Position numbers and translations under genes: made by a program
Shown here: positions 10,032-64,000 of the stretch, piece after piece
How the letters are laid out: the number at the start of each line of letters is the position of its first letter
Numbering within the stretch: the first letter of the stretch is position 1
NCBI GenBank assembly: GCA_964450945.1
Contig: CAYVHI010000001.1
Coordinates: 93,316-157,315 of the forward strand
Reading direction: 5' to 3'
Source: an uncultured Rickettsiales bacterium
GTDB lineage: Bacteria; Pseudomonadota; Alphaproteobacteria; Rickettsiales; JABDBP01
DNA length: 64,000 nt
Notes under the pieces: generated by a model
What the model saw: only the letters and a program-made list of their open reading frames with translations
The model's database searches: none
What the model was told of the DNA's origin: nothing

Positions 10032-10041
10032 ATTTAAAATA

Positions 10042-10079
10042 ATAAAGGCTTTCCCGTAAATATCAGGGAAAGCCTTTAT
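10042..10079 (-). promoter_or_regulatory. intercistronic stem-loop between precursor and MNIO gene
   Basis: Perfect 14-bp stem ATAAAGGCTTTCCC / GGGAAAGCCTTTAT with a 10-nt loop. On the - strand it is followed by ATTATTTTAAAT. Confidence 0.6.
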
Positions 10080-10110
10080 TTGCAATATAAAGTCTAATAC
10101 AAAAAGCTAA

Positions 10111-10380
10111 TTAGCCTTTCTTTTCTTCTTTATCAGCAACTACTTTACCACCCTCTTTTTCGCATTCTGCTTTAGTTTTATGAACCCATTCGTCAGCAAC
10201 ATTATCCGCCTTAGCTTGGCCAGCGCAAGAATGAGAAGAGGTGGCACAATCATTCTTTCCAGCAGCTACTTTACCTGTAGCGCATTTAACTTTTGCATCT
10301 TCAGCAACCGCACCTGTTGCAAGTGAAAGGCCTAGAGCCAGAACACTCGCAGCAGCGAGGAACTTTCCAGTATTTTTCAT
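10111..10380 (-). CDS. bufA: DUF2282-type secreted Cys-containing RiPP precursor (bufferin BufA-like)
   Basis: Sec signal peptide (LATGAVA/ED), then VKCATGKVAAGKNDCATSSHSCAGQAKADN...AECEKEGG. It has four Cys in the DUF2282 pattern and sits directly upstream of DUF692. Confidence 0.82.
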   Translation of the reverse strand: MKNTGKFLAAASVLALGLSLATGAVAEDAKVKCATGKVAAGKNDCATSSHSCAGQAKADNVADEWVHKTKAECEKEGGKVVADKEEKKG

Positions 10381-10527
10381 ATATACTCCAAAAAATGTTT
10401 AAAGAACTCTTCATGTTTGGGAAATCCATTCATGAATTAGACAATGCTTTAGCTAAAATTTTTATAATTGTCATCTGGTTTTATAGAGATTAATAGTTTA
10501 CTAAAACAGATGGTCTTTAAAAAAGAA

Positions 10528-10564
10528 ACAGGCCCTTTATGGGAACTATCCTCTAAGGGCCTGT
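10528..10564 (-). terminator. intrinsic terminator of 10587-10799
   Basis: ACAGGCCCTT ... AAGGGCCTGT stem. On the - strand it is followed by TTCTTTTTTAAAG. Confidence 0.6.
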
Positions 10565-10586
10565 AACAATTAAAGAAAGCTAAAAA

Positions 10587-10799
10587 CTATTCAGCTTTTT
10601 CTTTTGTTTCTTCAGCTTTCTTTTCGCCGTCTTCAGCTTTTTCAGCTTTCTTTTCGCCTTCTTTTGCTTCTTCAGCTTTCTTTTCACCGTCTTCAGCTTT
10701 TTCAGCTTTCTTTTCTGCTTTTTCTGCAGCTACAGCGAAAGATCCTGTTCCAAGAATAAGTGCAAGTGCGCTCATGATTGCAATAAGTTTAGTTTTCAT
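10587..10799 (-). CDS. small secreted Lys/Ala/Glu-repeat protein
   Basis: Signal peptide followed by repeats of AEKAEDGEKKAEE. The DNA shows a 30-bp period repeated about 4 times (10611-10730). Confidence 0.55.
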   Translation of the reverse strand: MKTKLIAIMSALALILGTGSFAVAAEKAEKKAEKAEDGEKKAEEAKEGEKKAEKAEDGEKKAEETKEKAE

Positions 10800-11221
10800 A
10801 ATAACTCCAAAAGTTGTTTATAAGCTTCCTTAAAACTTTTTTGATTTAGGGAATCAGCGAGCTTCTATACAATTTATTTTTATTTGTCACGCTTATTTCC
10901 AAACAACCAGTCTTGTTGTATTTTTGCAACCATAGAATATCGGCTATGAATTAACTCACGTTGCCGTGCTATTTTTCGCGCCATATAGCTGTTGAATTGC
11001 CGTCCTAGGTTGTTTAAGAATATAATTATGTAACCTAAGGTTGTATCATTATGCGTCAATTCATTTCGCTCCTTTGTATATTAATAAGCCCTGTTGTGCT
11101 GCTGTTTATTTGCGCCCGGTTTATTTTCACGTCATTCAGGTGAATGTGGCGTAAATAAATTTATGCTGGAGTCTTGAGCGATTAGTTATTATATTCTGCC
11201 TTTTCCTTAAGATACAACCAA

Positions 11222-14200
11222 ATGGCAGAAGCAAAAAAATTAGAGATTGAGAGAAAGCCGAAGCACTATCCTGATGTGGATGGCAACCCTGATTTTGCGC
11301 GTTTGGAGGAAAAAATCCTCCAGTTCTGGCAAACCCACGGCACATTTGAAGAATCGGTAACAAAACGGGATAAATCGCCTGAATTCATTTTTTATGATGG
11401 CCCGCCATTTGCAAACGGCCTGCCGCATTATGGCCACCTGCTAACTGGTTATGTGAAAGATTTATTCGCCCGCTACCAGACAATGAAGGGCAAAAAGGTG
11501 GAGCGCCGGTTCGGGTGGGATTGCCACGGGCTTCCAGCAGAAATGGGCGTAGAAAAAGAAATCGGAATTGGCGGCAGGAAGGCAATTGAAGAATATGGCA
11601 TCGCAAAATTCAATGACCATTGCCGCACCTCGGTGATGAAATATACGAAAGAATGGGAATTTTATGTAAACCGCCAGGCGCGCTGGGTGGATTTCGAGAA
11701 TGATTATAAAACGATGGATTTATCTTACATGGAATCCGTCATGTGGGCATTCAAGCAGCTTCATGAAAAAGGCTATGTCTATGAAGATTTCCGCGTCATG
11801 CCTTATTCATGGGCGATGGAAACCCCAGTTTCCAACTTCGAAACCAAAATGGATAACGCCTACCGCGACCGCACAGATAAGGCTGTTTATGTTGCGTTTG
11901 AGTTGGATAAAATTCCCGAACAAGTATTGATAAATAAAGACCAAAAAATAGAAAAAGCCTTTCTTGTTGCGTGGACAACTACCCCCTGGACTTTACCCTC
12001 AAATTTAGCTCTTGGTGTAGCAAAGCCAGATTCGCATATAAAATATTCTGCTCATATTGTTGAAGGAAAATGTTTCATTTGCTCTGAAGAAAGTGGAAAA
12101 AAACTTTTCCCTAATCTTTATAAAGAAGAAAATTCGTATCTTAGAGACAATAGTATTAAAGTTTACAAAAATGTTATTGGTTCTACTAATTCATCAGGCT
12201 TTAGCTTGATAGATTCAACATACAAACCGCTGTTCCCATATTTCGAAAAATTAAAAGAGAAAGGTGCGTTTAAAATTTTAAGTGCGGATTTTATTGAGGA
12301 AGGCAGTGGCACCGGCGTGGTTCACCTGGCCCCTGGGTTTGGTGAGGATGACCAGCGCGTTTGTAAAGAAAATGGCATTGAACTCGTTTGCCCGGTGGAT
12401 GAAAAAGGCCGTTATACTTCGGAAATCTATGATCTTGATGATTTAAAACTACAAGGCCTTAATGTTGTGGCTGATAAAAATAAATCGCCTGATGAACCTT
12501 ATCGCCCAGAACAGCTTGAGAAATATGGTTTAGCAAATCTTCGTATTATTGATTGGCTAAAAAAACATGAAAAGCTTGCTGCTCCTCCTGAAGATATAAA
12601 ACACAGCTATCCGCATTGCTGGCGCACTGATACTCCGCTTATCTACCGCGCCGTTTCTTCGTGGTATGTTGAAGTCACGAAATTCAAAAACCGCATGGTG
12701 GAACTGAACCAGCAGAAAAACAGGATTCCAGAGCACGGGAAAGATGGCCGGTGTGGCAAAAGGCTGGAAGGCGCGCAAGATCGGAGCATTTCACACAACC
12801 GTTTCTGTCGCGCACCCATCCCCGTGTGGCGCAGTGATGACCCACAATACCATTGCGAAAAAGTTTTTGGATCACTACAAGAATTACAAAATTTCTTTAA
12901 CGTAACTCCGCAAGATTTACATCGCCCGAATATAGATAAACTGGTTGCTAAAAATCCTAATGATCCAACCGGAAAATCAATGCTCCGGCGCGTTACGGAT
13001 GTCCTTGACTGTTGGTTTGAATCTGGCTCCATGCCTTTTGCGCAGGTGCATTACCCGTTTGAAAACAAGGATTGGTTTGAGAATCATTTTCCGGCGGATT
13101 TCATCGTTGAATATGAAGCGCAAACGCGTGGCTGGTTTTATACGCTGATGGTGCTTGGTACTGCTCTCTTTGATAAGCCGCCATTTAAAAACGTTATCTG
13201 CCACGGCGTAGTGCTTGATGAAAACGGCGAAAAACTTTCCAAAAGCAAAGGCAACTATGTTGATCCGAAAGAGATCTTCAACCAATACGGCGCAGATAGT
13301 TTACGCTGGCTCATGCTTTCATCGCCAATCATGAACGGGCAGGAACTTTATATCGATAAGGATGGAAAATTCATCCGTGATGTTGTGCGCCTATATATAA
13401 AGCCGATTTGGAACGCTTATAACTTCTTCACGCTATATGCAAATGCTGATGGTATAAAGGCAGAGTTTGATACAAAATCAGAAAACCTGATGGATAAATA
13501 TATCATGGCGAAGCTCGCTGTCACCATAGATTCCATTGAGGCCGCGCTTGATGCCTTCGATACACCAAATGCCTACCGCGCCATTGAGCAGTTCTTTGAG
13601 GCACTGAACAACTGGTATATAAGGCGCAGCAAAAACCGTTTCTGGAAAGAAGAAAAAGATCAGGATAAGCAAACGGCATATAACACTTTATATACATGCC
13701 TGGTGTTGATGTGCCGTGCCGCTGCACCCCTTATTCCATTCATAACCGAAGAAATATTTAAGGGTTTAACCGGGCAAGAAAGTGTTCACTTGGCTGATTT
13801 TCCTGATACCTCGAGAATGGAGCGGAGTGACCAGATGGTGATTGTCATGGACCGTGTGCGTGATGTCTGCAACGCCGCGCTTGCCATCAGGAATGTCCAG
13901 AATATCCGCGTACGCCAGCCGCTCGCATCCATGAGCATTGTTGGCAATAACACAAAAGGGCTTATGCCGTTTGTTGAAATCATCAAGGAAGAAATCAACG
14001 TCAAGAAAGTTGAGTTTGAAGATGATGTAGCTGCTTATGCTGATTTTAAACTTCAAATAAATTTCCAGGTGCTTGGCAAGCGTTTGCCTGAAAAAATTAA
14101 GCAGATAATTCCTGCTTCAAAGAAGGGTGAGTGGAAAAAACTTGCTAATGGAAATATAGAAATCGTTGGTGAAGAATTGACCGAAGATGAATGTTTTATA

Positions 14201-14554
14201 CTTCTGGAACCAAAGGATAAAAAAGGTGCAGAGCCGCTTTCCACGCAGGATGCGCTGGTGGTTTTAGATTTAAATATAACTCCGGAACTTGAAAAAGAAG
14301 GCATAGCACGTGATATCGTGCGCATGATCCAGCAAGCGCGGAAAGATGCCAAATTGAATGTCTCCGACAAAATAAATTTATTCATTGAGGCTACAGGCGA
14401 TATAGGCGCAGCAGTTGATGAAAATCAAGATTATATAAAAGAGCAAACCCTTACTTCCTCACTCCGCATGGGCAATGCGGATAATTCTGATAAGAAATTT
14501 GAGAACGAACTCGACGGCAAAAAGATTGTTATCGGACTTAGCAAGGCATCATAA
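11222..14554 (+). CDS. ileS: isoleucine--tRNA ligase (type 2, eukaryote-like form)
   Basis: 1110 aa with HIGH (PHYGH) and KMSKS (KLSKSKGN) motifs. GWDCHGLPAE and TTTPWTLPSNLAL are typical of type 2 IleRS. Confidence 0.9.
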   Translation: MAEAKKLEIERKPKHYPDVDGNPDFARLEEKILQFWQTHGTFEESVTKRDKSPEFIFYDGPPFANGLPHYGHLLTGYVKDLFARYQTMKGKKVERRFGWDCHGLPAEMGVEKEIGIGGRKAIEEYGIAKFNDHCRTSVMKYTKEWEFYVNRQARWVDFENDYKTMDLSYMESVMWAFKQLHEKGYVYEDFRVMPYSWAMETPVSNFETKMDNAYRDRTDKAVYVAFELDKIPEQVLINKDQKIEKAFLVAWTTTPWTLPSNLALGVAKPDSHIKYSAHIVEGKCFICSEESGKKLFPNLYKEENSYLRDNSIKVYKNVIGSTNSSGFSLIDSTYKPLFPYFEKLKEKGAFKILSADFIEEGSGTGVVHLAPGFGEDDQRVCKENGIELVCPVDEKGRYTSEIYDLDDLKLQGLNVVADKNKSPDEPYRPEQLEKYGLANLRIIDWLKKHEKLAAPPEDIKHSYPHCWRTDTPLIYRAVSSWYVEVTKFKNRMVELNQQKNRIPEHGKDGRCGKRLEGAQDRSISHNRFCRAPIPVWRSDDPQYHCEKVFGSLQELQNFFNVTPQDLHRPNIDKLVAKNPNDPTGKSMLRRVTDVLDCWFESGSMPFAQVHYPFENKDWFENHFPADFIVEYEAQTRGWFYTLMVLGTALFDKPPFKNVICHGVVLDENGEKLSKSKGNYVDPKEIFNQYGADSLRWLMLSSPIMNGQELYIDKDGKFIRDVVRLYIKPIWNAYNFFTLYANADGIKAEFDTKSENLMDKYIMAKLAVTIDSIEAALDAFDTPNAYRAIEQFFEALNNWYIRRSKNRFWKEEKDQDKQTAYNTLYTCLVLMCRAAAPLIPFITEEIFKGLTGQESVHLADFPDTSRMERSDQMVIVMDRVRDVCNAALAIRNVQNIRVRQPLASMSIVGNNTKGLMPFVEIIKEEINVKKVEFEDDVAAYADFKLQINFQVLGKRLPEKIKQIIPASKKGEWKKLANGNIEIVGEELTEDECFILLEPKDKKGAEPLSTQDALVVLDLNITPELEKEGIARDIVRMIQQARKDAKLNVSDKINLFIEATGDIGAAVDENQDYIKEQTLTSSLRMGNADNSDKKFENELDGKKIVIGLSKAS

Positions 14555-17798: not shown

Positions 17799-20180
17799 AT
17801 GGTAGATTATATTTTAACTAGTTCACAAACCATAACTGGCTTTAACGTCACTTCTGACGTTATTATTGTTCCATCTGCAGGCGGCAGCGCTAGCGTTGTT
17901 ACTGTAAGCGAAAATGCCGGCGGTACTACTTTTACACTTTCTAACGGTGTAGTAGTTACTGTTGCTGGTGTTACACGCGCTCAGCTTGCTGATACCAACC
18001 TTATCTTCTCAGACGGTTCTCGCGCACGTTTCGGCGATGCAACAACTGATAGCGCGCTTGATGGTATCGGTAACACCGTTGCAGGTACACTTCTTAACGA
18101 TCGTCAGTTTGGTCTTGGTGGGAATGATACTCTCTCTGCTTCAGCAGGTTCAGATTTCATAAACGGTAACCGTGGTAACGATATTTATACTGCTGCTGCT
18201 GATTCAGGCGCAGGTGATAGAATCCTCGGCGGTGCTGATAACGACACAATTGATGGCGCTCTGAACTCTGCATCACAACTTATTTACGGTGGCAATACAA
18301 ATCCTGATGCATTAGACGGCAACGATTCTCTCGTTGGCGGTGCTGGTGCTGACCAGATCTTCGGCGGTCTCGGTGATGATACGCTGGTTGACGGCGCAGG
18401 TGCAGATACGCTTGATGGCCAAGGCGGCAATGATAATATTGGTGCTGCAACAGCTCTTAACGCTGACGGCACAGGTGATGCAATCAACGGCGGCGCTGGT
18501 AATGATACAATTACCCTAGTTGCTGGCGGCGGCACAGAAACAGTTAACGGCGGTGCTGATAATGACAGCATCACCGGTAACAACGGCGCAAACCTTGTTC
18601 TCAACGGTAACGCTGGTAATGATACGATTACAGACGGTGCTGGTTCTCTTGCTACAGTTGGCGGCGGTGCCGGTAATGACAGCATCACTGCAAACGCTGA
18701 TGCTAACGGCGATCTGTTCAAAGGCGCTCTAGGCGATGATACACTTATCAGCGCTAACGCAGCTGGTACAGATACCTTCTTCGGTGGCGGAGGCAATGAT
18801 TCCTTCACAGCTACCACAGGTACTGCAACAACACTAACAATGTCTGGTGACGCTGGTAATGATACCATCACACTCGGCACAGGCGCTATCGGTACTGCAA
18901 ACTTCATCACTGGTGAAGGTACAGATTCTGTGAGCCTGTTCTTTGATGCTGCTGGTACAGACACTGTTAACGTTACAGACTTTACTGCTGGTACAGACCT
19001 CATGCTGATTAACGCTAACGTTAACGCTGCTGGCCTTGCTAACACAACCGGCAACTCTTCTACACTTACAATCAGAAACGCTGGTGACCGCGCAGTAGTC
19101 TCTACAAGCGGCGCTGGTACAATAAACGTACTGAACGGCGCTACATCATCATTAATCGCTTTCAACCTGGGTACAACCGGTGCTAGCGTTACTGGTGGCA
19201 CAGGTGCTGACCTCCTGATCTCTGATTCAGCTGGTGATACATTAACACTAGGTACCGGAAATGATTCGTTCATCGGCGGTGCTGGTAATGACCTTATCAT
19301 CCATGAATCCACAAGCACAGATTCAGGTAGTGCAGGTACTGGTACTGATACAATCAGCATAACAGGCACAACATCTGTAGCTAACTTCGGTGGCGCTATA
19401 ACTGGTGGTGAAGTTATCCTTCTCTCCGGTGCAGGCGGCAGGACCATAGATTTCTCTGGTTCTTACGCAGTCGGCGATATAGCTGCTTCAAGCACTGTTA
19501 CAATTGATGGCGCAGCTTCAACTGGCATCGTAACCATAACATCTACTGCTGATATCGGTACTAAAACTGATATCCGCGGTGGTTCAACTGGTGACAGCAT
19601 CGTTCTTACCAACACAACCACAGCTTCTACAATCAGTGGTAATGATGGTAACGATACACTCACTGGCGGTTCAGCTGCTGACGTACTGAACGGTGGCGCG
19701 AATGATGACCGTCTCTCTGGTGCGGCTGGTAATGATACATTAACCGGCGGTACAGGTATTGACAGCTTGAACGGTGGCGCAAACAACGACGTCTTCAGGT
19801 ATGCTACCGGTGATGCGGTTGCAGCTCCTGCTGTTGGCCAGATCGAAGTTGCTGCTGACTATACAGATGCAACTGACAAGATCATGTTCCAGGGCGTTAC
19901 ATCAAGCTGGACATTCGGCACAAACAACCTGACAACAGCTGACCCAACAATCGCTGCAGTTCTGGCTCTCAACTCAACAGCTAACTCTGTTCTTGCTGTG
20001 AACCTGAACAACGCATCTCAGACAGCTTTAACCGGTATCGGTGGCTTTGGTCTGAACGCTGCGAACGGCGATGACATCATCGTTATCAATGATGGCACCA
20101 ACAAGTTTGCCATATTTGTTGACGGTGCTGCTGCACTTACACTGACAACCTTTGCTGATATGTTCCAAGACTTTGCTTAA
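17799..20180 (+). CDS. RTX-type calcium-binding repeat protein (probable T1SS substrate)
   Basis: 793 aa with dozens of GGxGxDxUx nonapeptides (GGAGNDTI, GGLGDDTL, GGANDDRL). It is acidic and Cys-free, and the C-terminus is unstructured. Confidence 0.85.
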   Translation: MVDYILTSSQTITGFNVTSDVIIVPSAGGSASVVTVSENAGGTTFTLSNGVVVTVAGVTRAQLADTNLIFSDGSRARFGDATTDSALDGIGNTVAGTLLNDRQFGLGGNDTLSASAGSDFINGNRGNDIYTAAADSGAGDRILGGADNDTIDGALNSASQLIYGGNTNPDALDGNDSLVGGAGADQIFGGLGDDTLVDGAGADTLDGQGGNDNIGAATALNADGTGDAINGGAGNDTITLVAGGGTETVNGGADNDSITGNNGANLVLNGNAGNDTITDGAGSLATVGGGAGNDSITANADANGDLFKGALGDDTLISANAAGTDTFFGGGGNDSFTATTGTATTLTMSGDAGNDTITLGTGAIGTANFITGEGTDSVSLFFDAAGTDTVNVTDFTAGTDLMLINANVNAAGLANTTGNSSTLTIRNAGDRAVVSTSGAGTINVLNGATSSLIAFNLGTTGASVTGGTGADLLISDSAGDTLTLGTGNDSFIGGAGNDLIIHESTSTDSGSAGTGTDTISITGTTSVANFGGAITGGEVILLSGAGGRTIDFSGSYAVGDIAASSTVTIDGAASTGIVTITSTADIGTKTDIRGGSTGDSIVLTNTTTASTISGNDGNDTLTGGSAADVLNGGANDDRLSGAAGNDTLTGGTGIDSLNGGANNDVFRYATGDAVAAPAVGQIEVAADYTDATDKIMFQGVTSSWTFGTNNLTTADPTIAAVLALNSTANSVLAVNLNNASQTALTGIGGFGLNAANGDDIIVINDGTNKFAIFVDGAAALTLTTFADMFQDFA

Positions 20181-23831: not shown

Positions 23832-25169
23832 ATGAACACCATATTTGCACTATCATCAGCTCCCGGAAAGGCTGGCGTTGCGGTTTTCCGAATTTCCGGA
23901 AACAAGGCTGTTACCGCCCTTAAGAATCTAGGTATAAAGAAAAGGTTAAAGCCACGGCACGCGACTCTTGTTGAGCTGAAGACAGTGAAGGGCCAGGTTA
24001 TTGATAAAGGCTTGGCTATTTATTTTCCTGGCCCCAACAGTTTCACCGGGGAAGACGTGGTGGAGCTTCATGTACATGGCAGCCGGGTAGTGGTAAAAAT
24101 GCTTGCAAGCGAACTTTCATCCATGAACGGGATACGGCAGGCAGAGCCGGGAGAATTTACCCGCCGTGCACTGGAAAACGGCAAAATGGACTTGCTGGAG
24201 ACTGAAGGTTTGGCTGATCTTATAAATGCTGAAACCGCCATGCAGCATAAACAGGCACTACGCCAGATGGGCGGTGAGCTTTCAAAAACATATGAGGATT
24301 GGCGGCAGCAGATAATTAAGTCTCTTGCCCATCTTGAGGCCTATATTGATTTTCCGGATGAAGACCTGCCGGAGGATGTTGAGGCCGGGATCTTAGAAAC
24401 GGTTGAGGCGCTGAAATCCTCGATAAAAAGCCATCTTAATGATAACCGGCGCGGCGAATTGCTGAGAAGCGGGCTTTACGCCACCATTATAGGCTCTCCT
24501 AATGTTGGCAAGTCATCACTTCTCAATTATCTGGCGAAACGTGATGTCGCCATTGTTTCCCATATAGCAGGAACCACCCGCGATGTAATAGAGGTTCACC
24601 TTGATATTGCGGGTTACCCAATCACAATAGCCGATACCGCAGGGCTTAGAGAAACCGAAGATATCATAGAATCAGAAGGCGTAAGGAGAGCTAAAGACCG
24701 CGCCGGCGCTTCCGATATGAAAATAATAATGTTTGATGGGCTGGAGATAAAAAATCCTGATAAATCGATAATCGATCTTATTGACGAGAATTCCATAATC
24801 CTGGTCAATAAAATTGATGTCATCCCCCTCTCCTCTTCAGCTGAAATAAAGGGGAAGCAGGCCATTCCTGTTTCAGTAAAAACCGGCTCTGGGTTGAAGG
24901 ATTTCTTGCGTGCATTAGAAGAAAAACTGACGGAAAAAATGTCCATTTCATATGAACCGGCATTAACGCGGGAACATCACCGCAAGAATCTTGAAGGTTG
25001 TGTAAAGCAGCTGGAAAGCTATGTAGGAAGCCGTAAATCTGGTGCAGCTATTGAACTTTGTGCCGAAGAACTCCGCCTTGCATCAAGCTATATAGGCAGG
25101 ATAACCGGCAGGATAACCCTAGATGAAGTTTTAGATACGCTATTTAAAAGTTTCTGTATAGGAAAGTAG
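23832..25169 (+). CDS. mnmE: tRNA modification GTPase MnmE
   Basis: G-domain GSPNVGKSSLLN and DTAG motifs, with the C-terminal FCIGK signature. Confidence 0.93.
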   Translation: MNTIFALSSAPGKAGVAVFRISGNKAVTALKNLGIKKRLKPRHATLVELKTVKGQVIDKGLAIYFPGPNSFTGEDVVELHVHGSRVVVKMLASELSSMNGIRQAEPGEFTRRALENGKMDLLETEGLADLINAETAMQHKQALRQMGGELSKTYEDWRQQIIKSLAHLEAYIDFPDEDLPEDVEAGILETVEALKSSIKSHLNDNRRGELLRSGLYATIIGSPNVGKSSLLNYLAKRDVAIVSHIAGTTRDVIEVHLDIAGYPITIADTAGLRETEDIIESEGVRRAKDRAGASDMKIIMFDGLEIKNPDKSIIDLIDENSIILVNKIDVIPLSSSAEIKGKQAIPVSVKTGSGLKDFLRALEEKLTEKMSISYEPALTREHHRKNLEGCVKQLESYVGSRKSGAAIELCAEELRLASSYIGRITGRITLDEVLDTLFKSFCIGK

Positions 25170-25171
25170 CC

Positions 25172-25879
25172 TTATCCATGGCCTGGGCGCTGTACACCGA
25201 AATTCTTTTCTTTTACCGCCATAGCCTCCTGAACCTCTTTTGCCATATATACAACAGCCTCTTTACCTTTCAGTGATGGATGCCAGTGGTTAGGGCTGGA
25301 ATAGACGCAACTGCCGTCTGCCGGGATTGGCACTATACCCTCTGCATCACAAATCGCATTAAGGCCGTTCCTTATAAGGTCGGCCAGTGCTGCTGGCGGC
25401 GCACCAGCAATTTTAACAAGCGGGACTGTAAAATTCATAATCTGCCCTATATCTTTATCATACGCAGGTTCTGCATTAACAAACACTGCGGTGTGTATCA
25501 TCTTTAGTTTTTGTTGGATTCTTGCCAGATCTTCACGGCTGGTTATACCCCGAAAACTAAAATGGCACGCTCTTGTTTCATCATCATAGCGGTATTGATC
25601 TGGCCCTTCGCCCGGGGAATCTTTATTCCTTGCCCTGCTCTTTAATACTTCTGCGGTTAATTTTATCCCTATATCAGGAATTTTATCTATTCCAAGTTTC
25701 ATCCCTTCAATTAATCCATCTAAATGGCATGCGGCCGCCATAACCCCGTAAATAGCATGAGCTTCCTTTTCCGATACCCCGCGTATAGTAAATTGGCCAT
25801 CAACTTTTACACCAGTGCGCTTGGCATCAAATTCATCATAGGCAGCCTGAAAATAGCTTGCCACACTTCCTTTTGCCAT
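25172..25879 (-). CDS. hypothetical protein
   Basis: 235-aa ORF convergent with mnmE. No family recognised. Confidence 0.45.
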   Translation of the reverse strand: MAKGSVASYFQAAYDEFDAKRTGVKVDGQFTIRGVSEKEAHAIYGVMAAACHLDGLIEGMKLGIDKIPDIGIKLTAEVLKSRARNKDSPGEGPDQYRYDDETRACHFSFRGITSREDLARIQQKLKMIHTAVFVNAEPAYDKDIGQIMNFTVPLVKIAGAPPAALADLIRNGLNAICDAEGIVPIPADGSCVYSSPNHWHPSLKGKEAVVYMAKEVQEAMAVKEKNFGVQRPGHG

Positions 25880-26018
25880 ATCTGTTTCCGTTTTTATTAA
25901 ATATTAATAACTTATGATTAATAAATCGTTAACACTAAAGAGTAAGCTTTTGCTTGGAAAATGCCATGGTTTGTGCTAAATACCTTCCGGTCATGAAAAA
26001 GGGTGACAATATTTAAAT

Positions 26019-26034
26019 TGTTCCACGTGGAACA
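26019..26034. promoter_or_regulatory. parS centromere site
   Basis: TGTTCCACGTGGAACA is a perfect 16-bp palindrome matching the parS consensus TGTTNCACGTGAAACA. It lies 4 nt upstream of mnmG. Confidence 0.85.
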
Positions 26035-26037
26035 TTA

Positions 26038-27924
26038 GTGGCAAATCCAGGTTATATGCACAGTTTTGACGTTATAGTTATAGGCGGCGGGCATGCCGGC
26101 TGCGAAGCGGCTGCGGCTTCTGCGCGTGTTGGAGCTAAAACCCTCCTAATAACCAAGGAATTTTCTAAAATCGGCGAAATGAGCTGCAATCCTGCATTCG
26201 GCGGCATAGCAAAAGGCACGCTAGTGCGTGAAATTGATGCGCTTGATGGTGTAATGGCAAGGGCAGTTGATAAGGCTGGAATCCATTATAAAATGCTTAA
26301 CGCCAGCAAAGGCCCTGCTGTCTGGGGCCCAAGGGCACAGGCAGACCGCAAATTATACCGCAATGCCATGCAGCAGATAATGCGCGAACAGGAAAACCTT
26401 ACAATCCTTGAAGGCTCAGCCGAAGAATTACTCCTTGATGAAAATAAAGCTATACGCGGCGTTACCATGGCAGATGGCTCGGAGATTTCAGCTCCGAAGG
26501 TAGTTCTTACAACAGGAACATTCCTGCGTGGCCTTATCCATATCGGCGAGAAGAAAATAAGCGCTGGGCGCGTAAATGAGCCCCCTTCCCTTGGGCTTTC
26601 TGATAGCCTGGAGAAAATTGGCTTTGCACTCGGCAGGCTTAAAACCGGCACTCCTCCCCGTCTTGACGCTAAAACCATAGACTGGGCATCACTGGAATCA
26701 CAGCCGGGCGATAACCCTCCCCGTCCCTTCTCATACCTTACAAAGAAAGTTGAAGTCCCGCAGATCCATTGTCACATAACACATACTTCAAAAGAAACTC
26801 ATGAAATAATAAAGGCAAACGTTCACCGTTCGCCTATGTATTCCGGGCAGATAAAGAGCACCGGGCCACGTTATTGCCCATCAATTGAGGATAAGATCGT
26901 GCGCTTTGCCGATAAGGAACGTCACCAGATATTCCTGGAGCCGGAAGGTCTGGATGATGATACGATTTACCCAAATGGCATCTCCACATCACTGCCGGAA
27001 GAAGTCCAGCTTGATATAATTAAAACCATTCCTGGTTTAGAGAGAGCAGTAATGCTCCGCCCCGGCTATGCGATTGAATATGATTTTGTTGACCCGCGCG
27101 AGTTGAAGCCAACTTTGGAAACAAAACGCTGTAAAGGTCTATATCTTGCCGGCCAGATAAACGGCACCACAGGATATGAAGAAGCCGGCGGGCAGGGGAT
27201 TATAGCCGGTATAAACGCGGCTATTTCTGCTGGAGGTTCAAAGGAAAATTTCACGGTAGATCGTTCGGAAAGCTATATCGGGGTTATGATTGATGATTTA
27301 ATTACTCTTGGCACCAGCGAACCTTACCGCATGTTTACATCACGGGCGGAATACAGGCTTTCCATGCGCTCAGATAATGCAGATTTCCGTCTTACTGAGA
27401 AAGGCATGAAAGCAGGCTGTATTGCAAGCGAGAGAACAAAATTCTTCACTGAAAAATTAAATGTATATAAAAAGACAAAAGAAATACTAAACACAGTAAA
27501 GATTTCCCCGAACGAGGCTGCAAAGCACGGCATAAATATAAATCAGGATGGCGTGCTGCGCTCAGGCATGGCTTTACTTTCCTACCCCGGCATACGTTTA
27601 TCCAGCCTGAAATATCTCTGGCCGGAACTAAGCAGCTGTAAAAGGCCAGATGTGGTTGAGCAGCTGGAGATCGAAGCGCTTTACGCAGGTTATCTTGAAC
27701 GCCAGCAGATGGATATTTCTCAATTCAAGAAAGAAGAAAATACAATTATTCCAGAGCGTTTCAGTTTTGATGGAATAAGCGGGCTTTCAAATGAACTGAG
27801 AGAAAAACTAAAGAAGATAAAACCCGCTACAATCGGTGCTGCCAGCCGTATTCCCGGCATGACCCCAGCTGCAGTAACCATTCTTTTAATCCAGCTTAGA
27901 AAATTTGAAAAAGCCGCGGCCTAA
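26038..27924 (+). CDS. mnmG: tRNA uridine 5-carboxymethylaminomethyl modification enzyme MnmG
   Basis: FAD-binding motif [15 protein letters not shown] and full-length GidA-like sequence. GTG start (alternative ATG at 26056). Confidence 0.93.
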
Positions 27925-27930
27925 GTTTTT

Positions 27931-54339: not shown

Positions 54340-55224
54340 ATGAATATAGAAGAAGCAACAAGGCAATTAAATGCCATCGGTTTTGATACAATAGGCCCGG
54401 TTGCCAACTGGCAATACGATGAAGGGAGAAAATTATTTGTCCTCAACTTGCCACCTGGCACTGATAACGACAAGGCAAACCTGCTGTATGAAATACTCTC
54501 GGACAGGGTGGAAGCAAAAAGACGCGGCGCTCCTTTTGCAGAAGATGTAAGATATAAACTCTCTGTCGGCGGAAAAGCACGGATATTAAGTTTAAGCATA
54601 GCTGCCACAGACTTGGAGCTTGCCGCACCAGCGGTGACACAGATTGGCTCCGCAGTTCCAGAGGCACTTCCCGAAGATGAACCAATGACAGCCCTGCCCG
54701 TAAATGAAGATCAAGTAAAGCTTGTGGCAGAAACCTTTCCTTCACCTTTCAGGCCTATGGTAAGTGATGGAAAGTGGAAATATTTTGACCATCCAGACGA
54801 TGGTCCTCGCATACGCCTTTTGATAAAGTTGCCATCATCCGACCTTCTGCCGGCGCCAACAAAACAATCTGAGACCGCCGAAGATATTATAAGAGCAAAA
54901 CAGAATTTAGACCTTTTTCCCATGAGCCTTGATAAAGATCTTAATATGGCGGCAGGGAATGAATATATGAACGGAAGAGGCGTGGCAGCCTTTATGCTTA
55001 GAGTGGGCAGGGCAGGCGCACAAAACTCTTTCTATCTCGAAATTGTTGGCCTTAATCCTTCTGGGTTAAACGGCCAGAAAGCCCAAGAGGTGCGTAAAAC
55101 TATGGCGGAATGGTCTGGCCTTGTTAATGAAGCTATCGATACGCTAAGCAAAACACTCAGCCAGTCTAAAGGCCGGTTGAAAAAAGGCATCATCAGGCAA
55201 GATTCTGGTCCTTCACTAACTTAA
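54340..55224 (+). CDS. hypothetical repeat-module protein, paralog of 55240-56475
   Basis: 294 aa. It shares the VSDGKWK-containing module with the next gene. Confidence 0.55.
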   Translation: MNIEEATRQLNAIGFDTIGPVANWQYDEGRKLFVLNLPPGTDNDKANLLYEILSDRVEAKRRGAPFAEDVRYKLSVGGKARILSLSIAATDLELAAPAVTQIGSAVPEALPEDEPMTALPVNEDQVKLVAETFPSPFRPMVSDGKWKYFDHPDDGPRIRLLIKLPSSDLLPAPTKQSETAEDIIRAKQNLDLFPMSLDKDLNMAAGNEYMNGRGVAAFMLRVGRAGAQNSFYLEIVGLNPSGLNGQKAQEVRKTMAEWSGLVNEAIDTLSKTLSQSKGRLKKGIIRQDSGPSLT

Positions 55225-55239
55225 TTTGAGAAAACGATT

Positions 55240-56475
55240 ATGCCCAATAATTCGCCAGAAACAGTCATTGAGAATCTTGACATCCTTACCGAAGCGATGG
55301 GCCTTGAAGTTTCCAAGCAACTAGCCTGGCGTCAGGAACAGGTGCGTGGGCGCGATGCTTTCGTGCTGACGGGCATAGACCAGAATGCCGGCTCTGAACT
55401 GGCAAGAAAGATCAAGAATGTTGCCGAATTCATAAAGGGCGAAACAAGAACGCCCGTAACTAAAACTACATGGCACGTGGATGGTAAAAGCATAGATGGC
55501 GTTACAATTTTTCCTGAAGATATAGATGCCAATGTGTTGGCACAGGTTGCAGACCCCGTCATCCGCGCAAAAGAAGCTGCGGCAAACAAGGCCCTTAAAC
55601 CTAAAGATGTTGAAACAAAATTCCCAGAGCAAGATGCCCTTGCCTTCCTTAACTCATTAGGGTTTGATAAATTTAACCCGGCAGTCTCCGACGGAAAGTG
55701 GAAAATGGAAGGAAGTGGAGTGCCAGTCCTGCAGTTCTGGTGCCCCGCCGGAGTTGGGGCACCAAAAATAACCGACATAGCAGAAAGCCTGGAGGTTGCT
55801 GCCGGAAAGATGGACAAAGCACCCGTTGCCTCCTTCAAATTAGGGAAGGGGGAAGGGGCGCGCCCGGGCTTTGCTTCTTATGCGCTCTTTATTGATAATA
55901 TAGCGACAAATCCTGCTGATCTAGAAAGATATAGAGACACCATAATGGTAACAGCAGGAGAGTGGGTGGGCGAGATTAACCTTGCCATGCAGAACTCCAA
56001 AGGGCCAACGCTTAGAACTGTTGAGACCTCTGATATTGCGGTTCTTAATAAAGTAATGGACTTCTCAGGGCTTGATAAAAGACTGGTTGGCAAGCCAGGA
56101 TGGGAATTCCTAAAAGAACCAAACGGAGACACCTCCGCAAGGCTTACGGTGAGGGTTCCTGCCGAATGGCTTTCTTCAGAAAGAAAGGACCGCCTGAGCA
56201 TGAGTAAAGAGGCTGCACCACTGGAAAAGGCAGCTACAGCACCTGGCGACACAAGGAGCGCGATACTTGTTGTCTCCCTGCATGGACGCACCGTTGGCGG
56301 ACTTAAGAATTTGCAGATTATAGTTACCGCAATAAACCCGGAAGCGCTTGGGCAAAGAGCCGAAGCTCTAAAAGAGCCCGTTGCAAACCTGACGGCAAAC
56401 CTTAACGAAAGAGTGGCTCAAGAACTTAAGGACAGAGAGCCAAAATTATTCGGATCAATGCCAAGAACGCTTTAG
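55240..56475 (+). CDS. hypothetical repeat-module protein, paralog of 54340-55224
   Basis: 411 aa with about three copies of a ~100-aa module. No family recognised. Confidence 0.55.
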   Translation: MPNNSPETVIENLDILTEAMGLEVSKQLAWRQEQVRGRDAFVLTGIDQNAGSELARKIKNVAEFIKGETRTPVTKTTWHVDGKSIDGVTIFPEDIDANVLAQVADPVIRAKEAAANKALKPKDVETKFPEQDALAFLNSLGFDKFNPAVSDGKWKMEGSGVPVLQFWCPAGVGAPKITDIAESLEVAAGKMDKAPVASFKLGKGEGARPGFASYALFIDNIATNPADLERYRDTIMVTAGEWVGEINLAMQNSKGPTLRTVETSDIAVLNKVMDFSGLDKRLVGKPGWEFLKEPNGDTSARLTVRVPAEWLSSERKDRLSMSKEAAPLEKAATAPGDTRSAILVVSLHGRTVGGLKNLQIIVTAINPEALGQRAEALKEPVANLTANLNERVAQELKDREPKLFGSMPRTL

Positions 56476-57792: not shown

Positions 57793-58634
57793 CTTTCCCC
57801 CAGAGCTTTTAAAAGTTCTTCCTTCAGTTCAGGACTTATGGTTCCCGGATTCTTCCCAAACCATTCCGTGAATGCTGGTATTGCCTGGCCAATAAGCATA
57901 TCAAGCCCCCCGAGCGTCCGGTAGCCACGTTTCTTTGCCACCTTTATAAGTGGTGTTTCAAGAGGATTGTAGACAATATCATATATAAGCGCATTCTTCG
58001 GCAACCCGGCAAAATCAATCTCAAGCGGCGGCTGACCCTTCATGCCGAGTGAGGTTGTGTTTACAACAATATTTGCGCCACTCATCAGTTCTGGCATATT
58101 TTCCCACTCGGCCACTTCTATATTTTTCATGCCGAATATCTTTCCAAAATCATCCTTTAATCTTTCTGCTCTTTCTTTGTTGCGGTTGATAAGAACAATC
58201 TTTTTCTTTTCTTCAAGGTTAACAACCACAGAGCGCGCAGCACCCCCCGCGCCTATAACAACCGCCTTACCGCCCTCTGCATATTCTTCATAGCCGTTGC
58301 TCTGCAAGCTGAACCAGAAACCGAACTTATCTGTATTCTCGCCAAGAATTTTTCCATCCTTCTTGAAAATTACCGTGTTAACCGCACCTATGGCTTCCGC
58401 CTGCTCGGTAACCTCATCCATATAATCAATTACTTTTTCCTTGTGGGGAACCGTAACATTAACGCCCGCAAAACCCTCTTTCTTTAGCCATTTTATTTTT
58501 TTTCCGAGCTCTTCCGGCTTTACCAGAATGCGCTCATAACTACCTTTTATATTAAACTTCTTCAGCCAGAAATTATGTATTATCGGCGACAGCGAATGTT
58601 CTATGGGATAACCAATCACGCCAGCCTTTATCAT
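57789..58634 (-). CDS. aroE: shikimate dehydrogenase
   Basis: N-terminal GVIGYPIEHSLSP and GAGGAARS NADP site. Confidence 0.88.
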   Translation of the reverse strand: MIKAGVIGYPIEHSLSPIIHNFWLKKFNIKGSYERILVKPEELGKKIKWLKKEGFAGVNVTVPHKEKVIDYMDEVTEQAEAIGAVNTVIFKKDGKILGENTDKFGFWFSLQSNGYEEYAEGGKAVVIGAGGAARSVVVNLEEKKKIVLINRNKERAERLKDDFGKIFGMKNIEVAEWENMPELMSGANIVVNTTSLGMKGQPPLEIDFAGLPKNALIYDIVYNPLETPLIKVAKKRGYRTLGGLDMLIGQAIPAFTEWFGKNPGTISPELKEELLKALGER

Positions 58635-59455
58635 TCCCTTTCTTCCTTTTTCCTGCGCTGCTGATGAAGCTGGATGATGTTGGCGGCAACCTCCTCAACC
58701 GATTTTCTTGTTACATCTATAACCGGCCATCGCTGCTTGGAAAATAGTTTCTTCGCTTCTACCAGCTCTTCTTTTATCGAATCCATATCAACATAGCTGG
58801 TATCCCTATCTTCTTTCATTGAAAGAAGGCGGCTCTTCCTTATTTCAATAAGCCGTTCTGGCGCGATAACAAGTCCGACAATTAATGGCTTAGTTAGCGA
58901 AAAAAGTGTTTCTGGCAGAGCGACGCCTTTTACCATCGGAACGTTTGCCGCCTTATAGCCGCGGTGGGAAAGATACATGCTGGTTGGAGATTTTGAGGTA
59001 CGGGAAACGCCAACCAGGATTATATCCGCCTCTTCCAAATCCCAGGTTGCCTGGCCATCATCATGCGAGATGGAAAAGTTAATCGCCTCAACGCGCGAGA
59101 AGTATTCTTCATCCAATTCATACTGGCTGCCGGCACGCATTTTTATACCCATACCGAGCAGCGATGACATCTCACTTATAACGCGATTAAGTGGAGCTAC
59201 ATATGGAACATTTATTTTCTTACAGCCTTCAGCAAGATAATCCTGCAACAGCGGGTCTATAATGGTATACATAACTATCCCCGGGTTCTCCTTTATCTCT
59301 TCAAGAACCTTGTCTATCTGCCCTTTTGTACGGGTTAGAGACCATATATTCTCTTCTGCATCTATCCCCTCAAAAAGCGACATCACGGCACGGGCTATAC
59401 TACTTACCGTTTCCCCGGTTGAATCAGATATAAGATGCAGATTTATTTTTTTCAT
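58631..59455 (-). CDS. pyruvate,phosphate dikinase regulatory protein-like kinase/pyrophosphorylase (DUF299)
   Basis: LISDSTGET N-terminus and GVSRTSKSPTSMYL P-loop. Confidence 0.85.
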   Translation of the reverse strand: MKKINLHLISDSTGETVSSIARAVMSLFEGIDAEENIWSLTRTKGQIDKVLEEIKENPGIVMYTIIDPLLQDYLAEGCKKINVPYVAPLNRVISEMSSLLGMGIKMRAGSQYELDEEYFSRVEAINFSISHDDGQATWDLEEADIILVGVSRTSKSPTSMYLSHRGYKAANVPMVKGVALPETLFSLTKPLIVGLVIAPERLIEIRKSRLLSMKEDRDTSYVDMDSIKEELVEAKKLFSKQRWPVIDVTRKSVEEVAANIIQLHQQRRKKEERE

Positions 59456-59820
59456 ACATGATTTATAGGGAATTCTTGTGGATAAGTGAATAGGTTTTCC
59501 ACAGCCGGATATTTATCCCCGACAACTAAAAAATTAAAAGCCCAGTTATAGACATGTTGATATATTTTTTTACTACATGTTAAATAGGTTGATACTTTCA
59601 TGAACATAAATCTATCAACATTAACAACATTATAATTTTTTTATTAAAAACTAGTATATTAGAAATTTACATATATAAGTTATCAACATATTTATATTAA
59701 GATAAAAACTCATTAAAAAATTTTTAATATTGTTAATTTAATGTGGATATTATTTAATCCACACAAAAAATATTACCTACTAACTACTAAAACTCTTTTT
59801 AAATTTAAAATATATATTAA
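59456..59820. other. probable chromosomal replication origin (oriC)
   Basis: A 365-bp, ~80% AT spacer next to hemE, the classic alphaproteobacterial origin position. It holds one perfect DnaA box (TGTGGATAA, 59477-59485) and four one-mismatch boxes (59495-59503, 59680-59688, 59742-59750, 59755-59763), plus one TTAA-N7-TTAA motif (59713-59727). Confidence 0.75.
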
Positions 59821-60858
59821 GTGATAAAGCCTTTCTTAAAAACCCTATCTGGAGAAAAAACAGAAAAACCTCCTGTCTGGATAATGAGACAGGCAGGAAG
59901 ATATTTGCCTGAATATAATGAAACTAGAAAAAAAGCAGGTGGATTTTTAAATCTTTGCTATACACCGGAACTTGCAGCAGAAGTAACACTACAACCAATA
60001 AGAAGATTTGGTATGGATGCGGCAATAATTTTTTCAGACATACTAGTGATACCTCATGCGCTTGGAATAAATGTTGAATACCACGAAGGAAAAGGACCAT
60101 TACTTACAACCACAAGAAATTTATCTGAAATAAATAAACTAAACACAAAAAATATTTCTGAAAAATTATCTCCGGTCGGTGAAGCTATAAAAATAGTTGC
60201 TAGGGAACTGCCAAAACAAACAGCGCTGATAGGATTTGCCGGAGCCCCATGGACTGTTGCTACATACATGATCGAAGGCGGATCATCTAAGAATTTTGAA
60301 GAGGCAAAAAAACTTGCTTACACAGAACCAAAAACATTTAAGAGGATGCTTGGAATTATTATTGATGCAACTTCAGAATATCTTTCCATGCAGATAAATT
60401 CTGGTGCGGAAGTAATACAGATTTTTGATTCATGGGCGGGAGTCCTGACGGAAGATGAATTTAAAAAATGGGTTATAAAACCAACATCAGAGATTGTTAA
60501 AACAATAAAAGAAAAACACCCGCAGGTAAAAATAATAGGGTTCCCGAAAGGAGCAGGATTATTATATAAACAATATATAAAAAACACGAGGATAGATGCG
60601 GTGGGCATGGATATTAACCTGCCACTGAAATGGGCAAAACAGAACTTACAGAAAAAAATTCCTGTGCAAGGAAATCTTGACCCGGTATTGCTTGCGTCTG
60701 ACAAAGAGGCAGCCTGCCGCCAGGCAGAAAGAATAATAAATAATTTTTCTGGTGGGCCACACATCTTTAATTTGGGTCACGGCATATTACCGCACACGCC
60801 TGTAGATAACGTGAAGGCTTTAATTGATACGGTAAGAAAATTTAACGCACGCGCCTAG
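59821..60858 (+). CDS. hemE: uroporphyrinogen decarboxylase
   Basis: GTG start, with PVWIMRQAGRYLPEY and a full-length HemE-like sequence. Confidence 0.92.
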   Translation: MIKPFLKTLSGEKTEKPPVWIMRQAGRYLPEYNETRKKAGGFLNLCYTPELAAEVTLQPIRRFGMDAAIIFSDILVIPHALGINVEYHEGKGPLLTTTRNLSEINKLNTKNISEKLSPVGEAIKIVARELPKQTALIGFAGAPWTVATYMIEGGSSKNFEEAKKLAYTEPKTFKRMLGIIIDATSEYLSMQINSGAEVIQIFDSWAGVLTEDEFKKWVIKPTSEIVKTIKEKHPQVKIIGFPKGAGLLYKQYIKNTRIDAVGMDINLPLKWAKQNLQKKIPVQGNLDPVLLASDKEAACRQAERIINNFSGGPHIFNLGHGILPHTPVDNVKALIDTVRKFNARA

Positions 60859-61441
60859 GTGGCGGGGGCGGACCACGGTGCGGCTCAAGCTCTTCCTGCT
60901 TCTCAAGCGTTATAAGCATGCTGGCAAAAGCTTTTATAAGAAGATCAAGATTTTTTCTTTCTTCTCTGAATTTATCAGATGGTGCCATTGCGCGCAGGCA
61001 CATCACCAATACCGGAAAAGGATCATCTTCTTGCCTGAGGTTTGGCTTTAGCGAACTAGCTGGCCTTCCGGTTAATTCGAGAAGATCAGACGAATTCATT
61101 AAATTAAAAGAACTGACAGCGCGGCAGATTCTGTCCATTGCTTTTTCCAGATCCTCTGTTTCAGGCAAAGACAGGGAGATGGTTGCCATGCTGGTGCTGC
61201 CAAATAACCGGGCTTTTGCATAAGCGACAGCGATATCCTCCGCAACCAGCCTTCCCTGCTCATTTATGGGTGTAAAAAATTTATTCCTGATAAAATGGCA
61301 TATATTGGCAAGGTTTCCTTCGTCCGCAAGGTTAGAGGAATTCCTTTCAGGAGCTTTATCACGAAAAAACTTTCTTATTTGTTCAAACCTGTCGCCGTCC
61401 ATAAAATGCTTTCCATTTACCTCACTATACCTTAAAAGCAT
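60842..61441 (-). CDS. hypothetical protein
   Basis: 199-aa ORF between hemE and hemH whose 3' end overlaps hemE by 17 nt. It ends in a Pro-rich tail. No family recognised. Confidence 0.4.
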   Translation of the reverse strand: MLLRYSEVNGKHFMDGDRFEQIRKFFRDKAPERNSSNLADEGNLANICHFIRNKFFTPINEQGRLVAEDIAVAYAKARLFGSTSMATISLSLPETEDLEKAMDRICRAVSSFNLMNSSDLLELTGRPASSLKPNLRQEDDPFPVLVMCLRAMAPSDKFREERKNLDLLIKAFASMLITLEKQEELEPHRGPPPPPRRVR

Positions 61442-63273: not shown

Positions 63274-64000
63274 CTAATCATCTTTCTGAGTAGAGGCGCC
63301 GCCTATATCTTGCCGCCCAACCGGAGGAAGTTTTCTCTCAGGTGGTAAGGCAATTCTTATGTTAAGATCGTCTCCTAGTCCTTGGAGTAATTGTGCCGGA
63401 GTTTTGCCGGTTTCTACTATAAATCTTTTTGCGAGTGCGGAAAGAAATGCTTCTGGAGTTACTCCGAGCTGGCACGCTACATATTGGGTAACCGCACCCA
63501 CAACATCCCCGAGTTCAAAACCATTATTTAACATTTCAAGCAGAATCTGATGATTTTGTAGTCCGGCGGCATGGCCAAGAGCTACAATTGCATCCATCTC
63601 TCTTGCCCGATGGCCAGCCAGAAGTTCGCGGCCAGGAGTTGCTAGCCTCTGAAGATCTGCTTGGTCTGGCAATAAAGTTTCATCGAAGCCTGGTCCGGCG
63701 GCGGTGAGCAGCCTTTCAGGTTCTGCTGAAATGAAATACTGGACTTCTTTTGCGTACTCTTCCAGCCTTCCCCTTACCGTTGATCTTCTGTAAAGGATAT
63801 CATTATGATCTATATGCCTTCCCCTTAAATCTTCAGCTAACTCTTGAGGAAGCTGTTCTCTTACTCTTTTTGATATTCTAAGGTTCTGGCCGGCACTCAA
63901 TAGATCAGAGATTTCCGTTCCTTCTTTAAGGGCGCCAAGGTCGTTACAGGCGCAACATAAAGAAAGAATGGACGGTAATAAGAATTGGGCGTTCCCTGTA
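63274..64000 (-). CDS. hypothetical protein, 5' end outside the window
   Basis: By manual translation the frame stays open from 63274 to the window edge (…LSLCCACNDLGALKEGTEISDLLSAGQNL…). The TTG at 63900 in the track is probably internal. No family recognised. Confidence 0.45.
   Translation of the reverse strand, partial: TGNAQFLLPSILSLCCACNDLGALKEGTEISDLLSAGQNLRISKRVREQLPQELAEDLRGRHIDHNDILYRRSTVRGRLEEYAKEVQYFISAEPERLLTAAGPGFDETLLPDQADLQRLATPGRELLAGHRAREMDAIVALGHAAGLQNHQILLEMLNNGFELGDVVGAVTQYVACQLGVTPEAFLSALAKRFIVETGKTPAQLLQGLGDDLNIRIALPPERKLPPVGRQDIGGASTQKDD

Follow-up and report, generated by a model that had tools for sequence, protein, structure and literature searches.

In the 64-kb stretch of DNA analyzed here (hereafter, the window), which comes from an uncultured alphaproteobacterium, two divergent genes are separated by a short intergenic spacer. 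The gene on the left encodes a kinase/pyrophosphorylase (PDRP), and the one on the right is hemE, the gene for uroporphyrinogen decarboxylase. The original prediction placed an origin of chromosomal replication (oriC) in this hemE-adjacent position. We examined the spacer, its relatives and its surroundings with respect to that proposal. The features of the locus, in order along the window, are the following:

58631-59455, minus strand: left boundary gene, PDRP (DUF299/COG1806; PF03618, E=1.4e-91)
59456-59820: the entire PDRP-hemE intergenic spacer, candidate oriC, 365 bp, 78.9% AT
59477-59485, minus strand: perfect DnaA box TGTGGATAA (= TTATCCACA), 22 nt from the PDRP start codon
59495-59503, plus strand: DnaA box TTTTCCACA, one mismatch, after a 9-nt gap from the perfect box
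59513-59521, plus strand: weak DnaA box TTATCCCCG, two mismatches, 18 nt start-to-start from the box at 59495
59546-59563: abutting inverted pair of degenerate boxes, TTATAGACA (plus) and ATATCAACA (minus), two mismatches each
59629-59730: central tract of minimum stability in the nearest-neighbor profile, candidate unwinding region
59680-59688, plus strand: DnaA box TTATCAACA, one mismatch
59713-59727: TTAA-N7-TTAA (CtrA-type) motif, judged a chance match
59742-59750, minus strand: DnaA box listed as TGTGGATAT and also as ATATCCACA, one mismatch
59755-59763, plus strand: DnaA box TAATCCACA, one mismatch
59777-59789, plus strand: CTA repeat CTACTAaCTACTA, possible DnaA-trio array, 13 nt after the plus-strand box TAATCCACA; it reads 3'-GAT-5' on the opposite strand
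59790-59820: A/T tract following the CTA repeat (AAACTCTTTTTAAATTTAAAATATATATTAA), alternative candidate unwinding site
59821-60858, plus strand: right boundary gene, hemE, with a GTG start at 59821 (PF01208, E=2.7e-126, residues 3-340)

The identity of the two boundary genes is central to the assignment. The PDRP gene is the orthologue of Caulobacter CC0001 and Rickettsia RP001. In Caulobacter crescentus, the origin (Cori) was mapped experimentally between hemE (CC3763) and the DUF299/COG1806 gene CC0001 (PMC1914354, PMC6393856). In Rickettsia prowazekii, an origin of 384 bp and 82.6% AT was predicted between the same two genes, RP885 and RP001 (PMC1914354). Because the same gene pair bounds the mapped Caulobacter origin, we regard the present locus as the positional orthologue of Cori. 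As a predicted origin, it belongs to the already known alphaproteobacterial hemE/COG1806 class and would not surprise a specialist.

The spacer also stands apart in composition. Its AT content of 78.9%, compared with 56.6% for the window, ranks first when the window and its rightward extension (described below) are searched for intergenic regions of 50 bp or more, of which there are 27, and no other intergenic region of the window has a comparable cluster of DnaA boxes. The original description of a 365-bp spacer of about 80% AT between divergent genes is therefore accurate. The right-hand limit was set by the GTG at 59821, a start that we favor because the Pfam match extends over residues 3-340 of this reading and because its N-terminus is conserved: the segment PPxWxMRQAGRY is kept in 18 homologues. 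A database version of the protein (P0001) has 317 residues, 28 fewer than the GTG-59821 reading. By arithmetic, its start would be the TTG at 59905, and this short call would inflate the spacer to 449 bp.

Does the spacer contain more DnaA boxes than its composition would yield? The expected number was obtained from 5000 dinucleotide shuffles of the spacer itself. Five boxes with at most one mismatch are present, as opposed to a mean expectation of 0.17, and not one of the 5000 shuffles reached even three. With two mismatches allowed, the count rises to 10, compared with 2.0 expected from the same shuffles. The original prediction had listed one perfect box and four single-mismatch boxes, the last two of them inverted, and we recovered all of these on the sequence at the coordinates it gave. 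The perfect box at 59477-59485 is the only one across the 64 kb, and the boxes at 59742-59750 (minus) and 59755-59763 (plus) form an inverted pair with a 4-nt gap. When frames of 365 bp were slid along the 64 kb, every frame holding at least three boxes overlapped the spacer, making this the sole such cluster.

We then asked whether these boxes are retained at orthologous loci. No close relative was detected in the reference genome collection, where the best hemE match has 46% identity. In a large protein database, the closest hemE is 63% identical, and the named best matches (54-56%) belong to Rhodospirillales-type genera. Exact look-ups of the best protein matches (loci L092-L094) and a metagenome scan with hemE (80 loci at 45-54%, L012-L091) furnished 40 loci with PDRP on the minus strand and hemE on the plus strand; together with the spacer of the window, they provide a set of 41 spacers. 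Boxes with at most one mismatch occur at 4.3 per kb in the spacers of the 40 relatives and at 0.14 per kb elsewhere in the same loci, an enrichment of about 30-fold. At least one such box is present in 36 of the 40, and the nearest relatives, L092, L093 and L094, have six, four and five, respectively. An unbiased, strand-specific analysis of 6-mer enrichment over the 41 spacers was led by TCCACA (35/41) and TGTGGA (29/41); TCCCCG and ATCCCC were enriched as well.

The comparison with L092, whose PDRP and hemE products are 81% and 63% identical to those of the window, resolves this conservation to individual sites. Within the five boxes, the aligned spacers share 91% identity, versus 48% outside them (Fisher P=9e-9). 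The perfect box at 59477 is identical and occupies the same position in L092. It begins a triplet of boxes located 22, 40 and 58 nt from the PDRP start in the window and 25, 43 and 61 nt from it in L092, with the same 18-nt phasing. The third member of the triplet, the weak box at 59513, aligns with TTTTCCACA in L092, and the degenerate pair at 59546-59563 aligns with TT-TCCACA followed by TGTGGATAA, which includes a perfect box. Likewise, the box at 59680 aligns with TTACCAACA, and the inverted pair at 59742-59763 is conserved as AATGTGGATATTATgcTATCCACA, lying 57-70 nt from hemE in the window and 49-62 nt from it in L092. The module TGTGGATAA-N9-TTTTCCACAG of the window recurs in both L092 and L094, and in many relatives a box on the minus strand is located 14-33 nt from the start of PDRP. 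The original prediction had named a lack of conserved boxes upstream of hemE in relatives as evidence that would count against it; the boxes are conserved there.

Strand composition was studied over 70,648 bases, that is, the window plus a 6.6-kb extension to its right (contig L001, identical over a 4188-base overlap). On the raw cumulative G-C curve, the lowest point is reached at 59873; for purine excess, it is reached at 59645. Thus, the GC-skew minimum, which the original prediction had stated should not lie elsewhere, is at the spacer within these 70.6 kb. Because skew follows gene orientation, we fitted per-gene skew on a 1-kb grid with orientation as a covariate. The best orientation-corrected switch point was 60 kb (F=20 for all positions, F=13 for third codon positions). 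At third positions, the coding-strand skew left of the spacer is +0.06 for minus-strand genes and -0.10 for plus-strand genes; right of the spacer, it is +0.13 for plus-strand genes and -0.01 for minus-strand genes. Plus-strand genes thus have a higher coding-strand skew on the right than on the left (P=0.0002). This reversal at the spacer is the pattern of an origin, not of a terminus. Two genes were outliers in third-position GC skew: an RTX-repeat protein gene (17799-20180, plus; -0.70) and a porin gene (37019-38230, minus; -0.52). Repetitive codon usage likely explains the RTX outlier.

An origin must also be opened, and the original prediction had pointed to A/T runs suited to unwinding. 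Indeed, nearest-neighbor energies place the helix stability minimum of the window in the spacer: at segment lengths of 40, 100 and 200 bp alike, the weakest duplex of the 64 kb falls within 59629-59828, and the 200-bp minimum is about 5 standard deviations from the window mean. Apart from the central tract, the A/T tract at 59790-59820 overlaps the segment 59780-59819, which is the sixth least stable 40-bp segment of the 64 kb.

Other contents of the spacer were also considered. Compared with Rfam, the spacer had no match above noise; neither a tRNA nor an RNA family accounts for it, and a structured RNA or riboswitch was rejected on this ground. A 51-codon open reading frame (ORF) called in the spacer (59452-59607, minus) was treated as spurious, having no similarity to the 51-codon ORF called in L093. 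In the Logan assembly of SRR12808458, both contigs over the locus (L001 and L009) begin inside the spacer, at window positions of about 59813 and 59799. These breaks are consistent with poor coverage or assembly of very AT-rich DNA, a circumstance that matters for read-depth analysis.

The gene neighborhood adds further markers. To the left, PDRP, aroE, coaE and dnaQ occupy the minus strand; next come two ORFs without a family and then secB, and no maf gene lies between PDRP and aroE. In Caulobacter, too, an aroE-coaE-dnaQ-secB block is located beyond the DUF299 gene. To the right lie hemE, a 199-codon ORF on the opposite strand, hemH, hemJ (UPF0093) and a BON-domain gene, and past the right edge of the window are rho, mdh and sucC. 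The original prediction had described a switch in gene orientation at the spacer. Locally this holds, as the nearest four genes on the left read leftward (minus) and most of those on the right read rightward (plus); it does not extend to the whole left side, where the plus strand encodes 42% of the coding residues. Origin-proximal markers are also found at some distance:

23832-30256, plus strand: mnmE, gidA, gidB, parA and parB (Pfam), about 30 kb from the spacer
26019-26034 and 27990-28005: two identical copies of a parS-like perfect palindrome, TGTTCCACGTGGAACA

One parS-like copy is situated just upstream of gidA and the other inside gidB, by parA-parB. In total, the parS-like motif has three matches in the window, compared with 0.33 expected.

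Four ORFs without a Pfam family (54340-55224, plus; 55240-56475, plus; 60842-61441, minus; and 63274-64000 onward, minus) interrupt the otherwise conserved gene order of the origin region, at three places: secB/dnaQ, hemE/hemH and BON gene/rho. The two ORFs listed first are distantly paralogous to each other (24% identity, E=4e-5), and each seems to have an internal repeat. The 199-codon ORF at 60842-61441 shares 17 nt with the 3' end of hemE, and the ORF that begins at 63274 comprises 408 codons in L001 (3462-4688).

The locus was next compared with known origins, beginning with regulatory motifs. Cori contains two moderate-affinity G boxes and five weak W boxes for DnaA, along with five CtrA sites, an IHF site and CcrM GANTC sites (PMC6393856). 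The present spacer resembles Cori in both boundary genes and in being an AT-rich intergenic region that spans a few hundred bp and contains multiple DnaA boxes. Unlike in Cori, one of its boxes fits the consensus perfectly and four deviate from it by a single mismatch, and the spacer differs further in its single, chance-level TTAA-N7-TTAA motif, in the lack of a GANTC or IHF consensus and in the missing maf between PDRP and aroE. The CtrA-type motif that the original prediction had listed does exist at 59713-59727, but it fails as evidence: shuffling of the spacer shows that its composition alone would account for it (P=0.215), and it is absent from the spacers of all 40 relatives. The looser TTWW-N7-TTWW pattern occurs 15 times versus 7.3 expected (P=0.019), an excess that is uninformative in A/T runs. 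We accordingly rejected CtrA control as evidence for the origin. A search of the spacer for IHF consensus sites returned no match to WATCAANNNNTTR or to WATCAN5WTR, and no GANTC (CcrM) site occurs in it. Words containing GAGTC (AGAGTC, TGAGTC and GAGTCC), which include GANTC, are enriched over the 41 related spacers, in about 12 of them (among L012-L091), and are absent from the spacer of the window. The term "Caulobacter-type" fits the location of the predicted origin; the sequence holds no indication of CtrA, CcrM or IHF control.

The predicted origins of R. prowazekii and R. typhi resemble the spacer in their boundary genes, size and AT content (384 bp and 82.6%, compared with 365 bp and 78.9% here), all of these being in silico predictions. 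They belong to a different lineage, and CtrA and IHF sites, which Brassinga et al. reportedly described for Rickettsia, have no support in this spacer. The predicted origins of Wolbachia, Ehrlichia and Anaplasma are similarly hemE-adjacent, AT-enriched spacers of about 400 bp with a few DnaA boxes and comparatively few CtrA sites (PMC1914354). In those genera, however, the partner of hemE after rearrangement is a COG1253 CBS-domain gene, whereas the ancestral hemE/COG1806 pairing is intact here. With oriC of Escherichia coli, the spacer shares the 9-mer consensus TTATCCACA of high-affinity boxes, the combination of stronger with weaker boxes and, beside them, AT-rich DNA that is a candidate unwinding element here. 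It differs from that origin, which lies in a gidA-mioC context, in having no GATC/SeqA features, 13-mer repeats or IHF consensus.

The hemE edge of the spacer contains a further conserved element, the CTA repeat. CTACTA occurs twice in the spacer, compared with 0.09 occurrences expected (P=0.003 in shuffles), and CTACTA/ACTACT is among the most enriched 6-mers of the related spacers, being found in 11 of the 41 versus 0.65 expected. In this set, the repeat favors the hemE-sense strand (14 versus 5 antisense) and is mostly located 30-100 nt upstream of hemE. L092 carries CTACTACTA and L093 carries CTACTAaCTA, both placed alike relative to a box on the plus strand. In many of the more distant relatives, CTACTAC, CAACAAC or CCACTACTCC precedes a CTTTT-A/T tract.

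This arrangement is reminiscent of the basal unwinding system (BUS) of Bacillus subtilis, which consists of DnaA boxes 6/7, DnaA-trios and an AT-rich tract. Its order is a 5' box, a spacer and CTA repeats that read 3'-GAT-5' on the other strand (supplementary table, PMC8287927). The succession of box, 13-nt spacer, CTA CTA and A/T tract in the window agrees with the BUS in order and orientation, and 13 nt, the distance between TAATCCACA and the CTA repeat, is the commonest spacer length in the BUS. Unlike the BUS, the spacer has two consecutive in-frame trios, a 1-nt shift and then two more, with no second tandem box and no GC cluster. A strict BUS rule was also applied, in which a box with at most two mismatches must be followed within 16 bp by at least three consecutive trios (3'-NAN-5') in the correct orientation. 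The box TAATCCACA has the right orientation and spacing, but its 2+2 CTA trios are split by one nucleotide where the rule calls for three or more in succession. The other boxes of the spacer satisfy a loose NTN rule trivially in such A/T-rich DNA, and across the 41 related spacers the formal rule fails to separate sense from antisense boxes. Further, in the CAACAAC variants the strand that would be bound does not have the expected adenine, and period-3 C patterns, taken as a generic trio signature, showed no enrichment over a mostly coding background. The conserved CTA repeat may be a DnaA-trio array, a part of the hemE promoter or leader, or the site of another protein.

How might this origin work? 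The initiation process set out here is what we infer from the observed anatomy, conservation and position of the spacer. DnaA-ATP would first occupy the perfect box at 59477 and its partner at 59495. It would then spread cooperatively over the weaker boxes (59513, 59546-59563, 59612-59629 and 59680), which are spaced at 18 bp and distributed over the spacer, and would also occupy the inverted pair at 59742-59763. The resulting DnaA oligomer would melt adjacent A/T DNA, the helicase would be loaded there, and two forks would leave in opposite directions. As to where melting would begin, we give about an even chance to the hemE-proximal tract (59777-59820), which is DnaA-trio/BUS-like, and a somewhat smaller one to the central tract (59629-59730).

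Taken together, the families of the flanking genes, the box cluster, the stability minimum, the local skew switch and the nearby parAB, parS and gidAB support the original placement of oriC. We conclude from the sequence and its context that the spacer at 59456-59820 is very probably the chromosomal oriC of this uncultured alphaproteobacterium. Several points weigh against this conclusion. The window contains no dnaA, so linkage to that gene is missing; such a lack is usual for origins of this class. DnaA boxes also act as transcriptional operators and as titration sites. Only 10.8 kb of the analyzed sequence lie to the right of the spacer, making the skew minimum a local and not a replicon-wide one. 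Finally, a pooled skew test on 19 related loci gave the expected sign in 15, but this support is weak, since GC-rich loci contain spurious antisense ORFs that confound the test.

The alternative that best withstands these data is that the spacer is a DnaA-regulated divergent promoter region or a datA-type titration site, controlling hemE and/or PDRP or buffering free DnaA, with the true origin elsewhere on the replicon. The promoters of both flanking genes must lie in the spacer, DnaA boxes can act as operators, and the inverted box pair is overlapped by a sigma-70-like match at 59724-59753; the restriction of the skew analysis to 70.6 kb also leaves room for an origin elsewhere. Yet that match is the only one in a promoter scan of the spacer, compared with 4.2 in shuffles, an uninformative result with fewer promoter-like matches than chance would supply. 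The spacer is also where the local skew minimum and the orientation-corrected switch are found, its locus corresponds by orthology to the experimentally mapped Cori, five to 10 boxes are combined with the helix stability minimum of the window, and parS, parAB and gidAB are nearby. We therefore consider a purely regulatory or titrating function improbable.

It is less probable still that the spacer is the origin of a secondary replicon (a chromid or large plasmid) instead of the main chromosome. The available sequence is a contig, which leaves some latitude for such a reading. Nevertheless, the window and its extension are rich in core genes: topA, dprA, plsY, guaB and three genes for class I aminoacyl-tRNA synthetases (one with the editing domain that marks it as leuS) are found in the window, in addition to rho, dnaQ, secB, mnmE, gidA and gidB, which were introduced above. 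There were no Rep/RepABC-type genes among the scanned ORFs, and the synteny agrees with the chromosomal origins of other Alphaproteobacteria. That the spacer is ordinary AT-rich DNA with box-like words arising by chance can be dismissed with near certainty, for although such DNA yields many partial matches to an A/T-rich consensus (the CtrA-like motif being a case in point), the shuffles never produced such a cluster, the boxes are positionally conserved in L092 while their surroundings have diverged, and they are enriched about 30-fold in the 40 orthologous spacers.

Two other loci in the window were recorded in passing. At 8423-11221, an MbnB/TglH/ChrH-family gene is found together with a DUF2063 gene (minus) beside 1136 bp that contain no long ORF (10086-11221), possibly a locus of the ribosomally synthesized and post-translationally modified peptide type with small precursor genes. 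Next to it, at 11222-14554 (plus), is a class I aminoacyl-tRNA synthetase gene, apparently isoleucyl, whose product of 1110 residues has a DUF5915 C-terminal domain. We take this domain to mark the type 2, eukaryote-like isoleucyl-tRNA synthetase.

Returning to the predicted oriC, its assignment would fix the replication start and the orientation of the replichores for an uncultured alphaproteobacterial lineage without a close reference relative. It would also enable growth-rate estimates for this organism from metagenomic read depth by the peak-to-trough ratio. In a wider view, it adds an example of the hemE/COG1806 origin locus being preserved well beyond Caulobacter and Rickettsia without the accompanying CtrA, CcrM and IHF motifs. 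A bolder proposal, which we offer only tentatively and consider doubtful at present, is that the strand-specific CTA repeat is a DnaA-trio-type array for single-strand binding, is conserved across alphaproteobacterial hemE/COG1806 origins and fixes unwinding at the hemE edge; this deep-branching lineage would then use a simplified Cori-type origin, having consensus high-affinity boxes and no CtrA, CcrM or IHF input. The conserved CTA repeat is, at the least, a concrete and testable candidate for the unwinding determinant of the hemE/COG1806 origin class.

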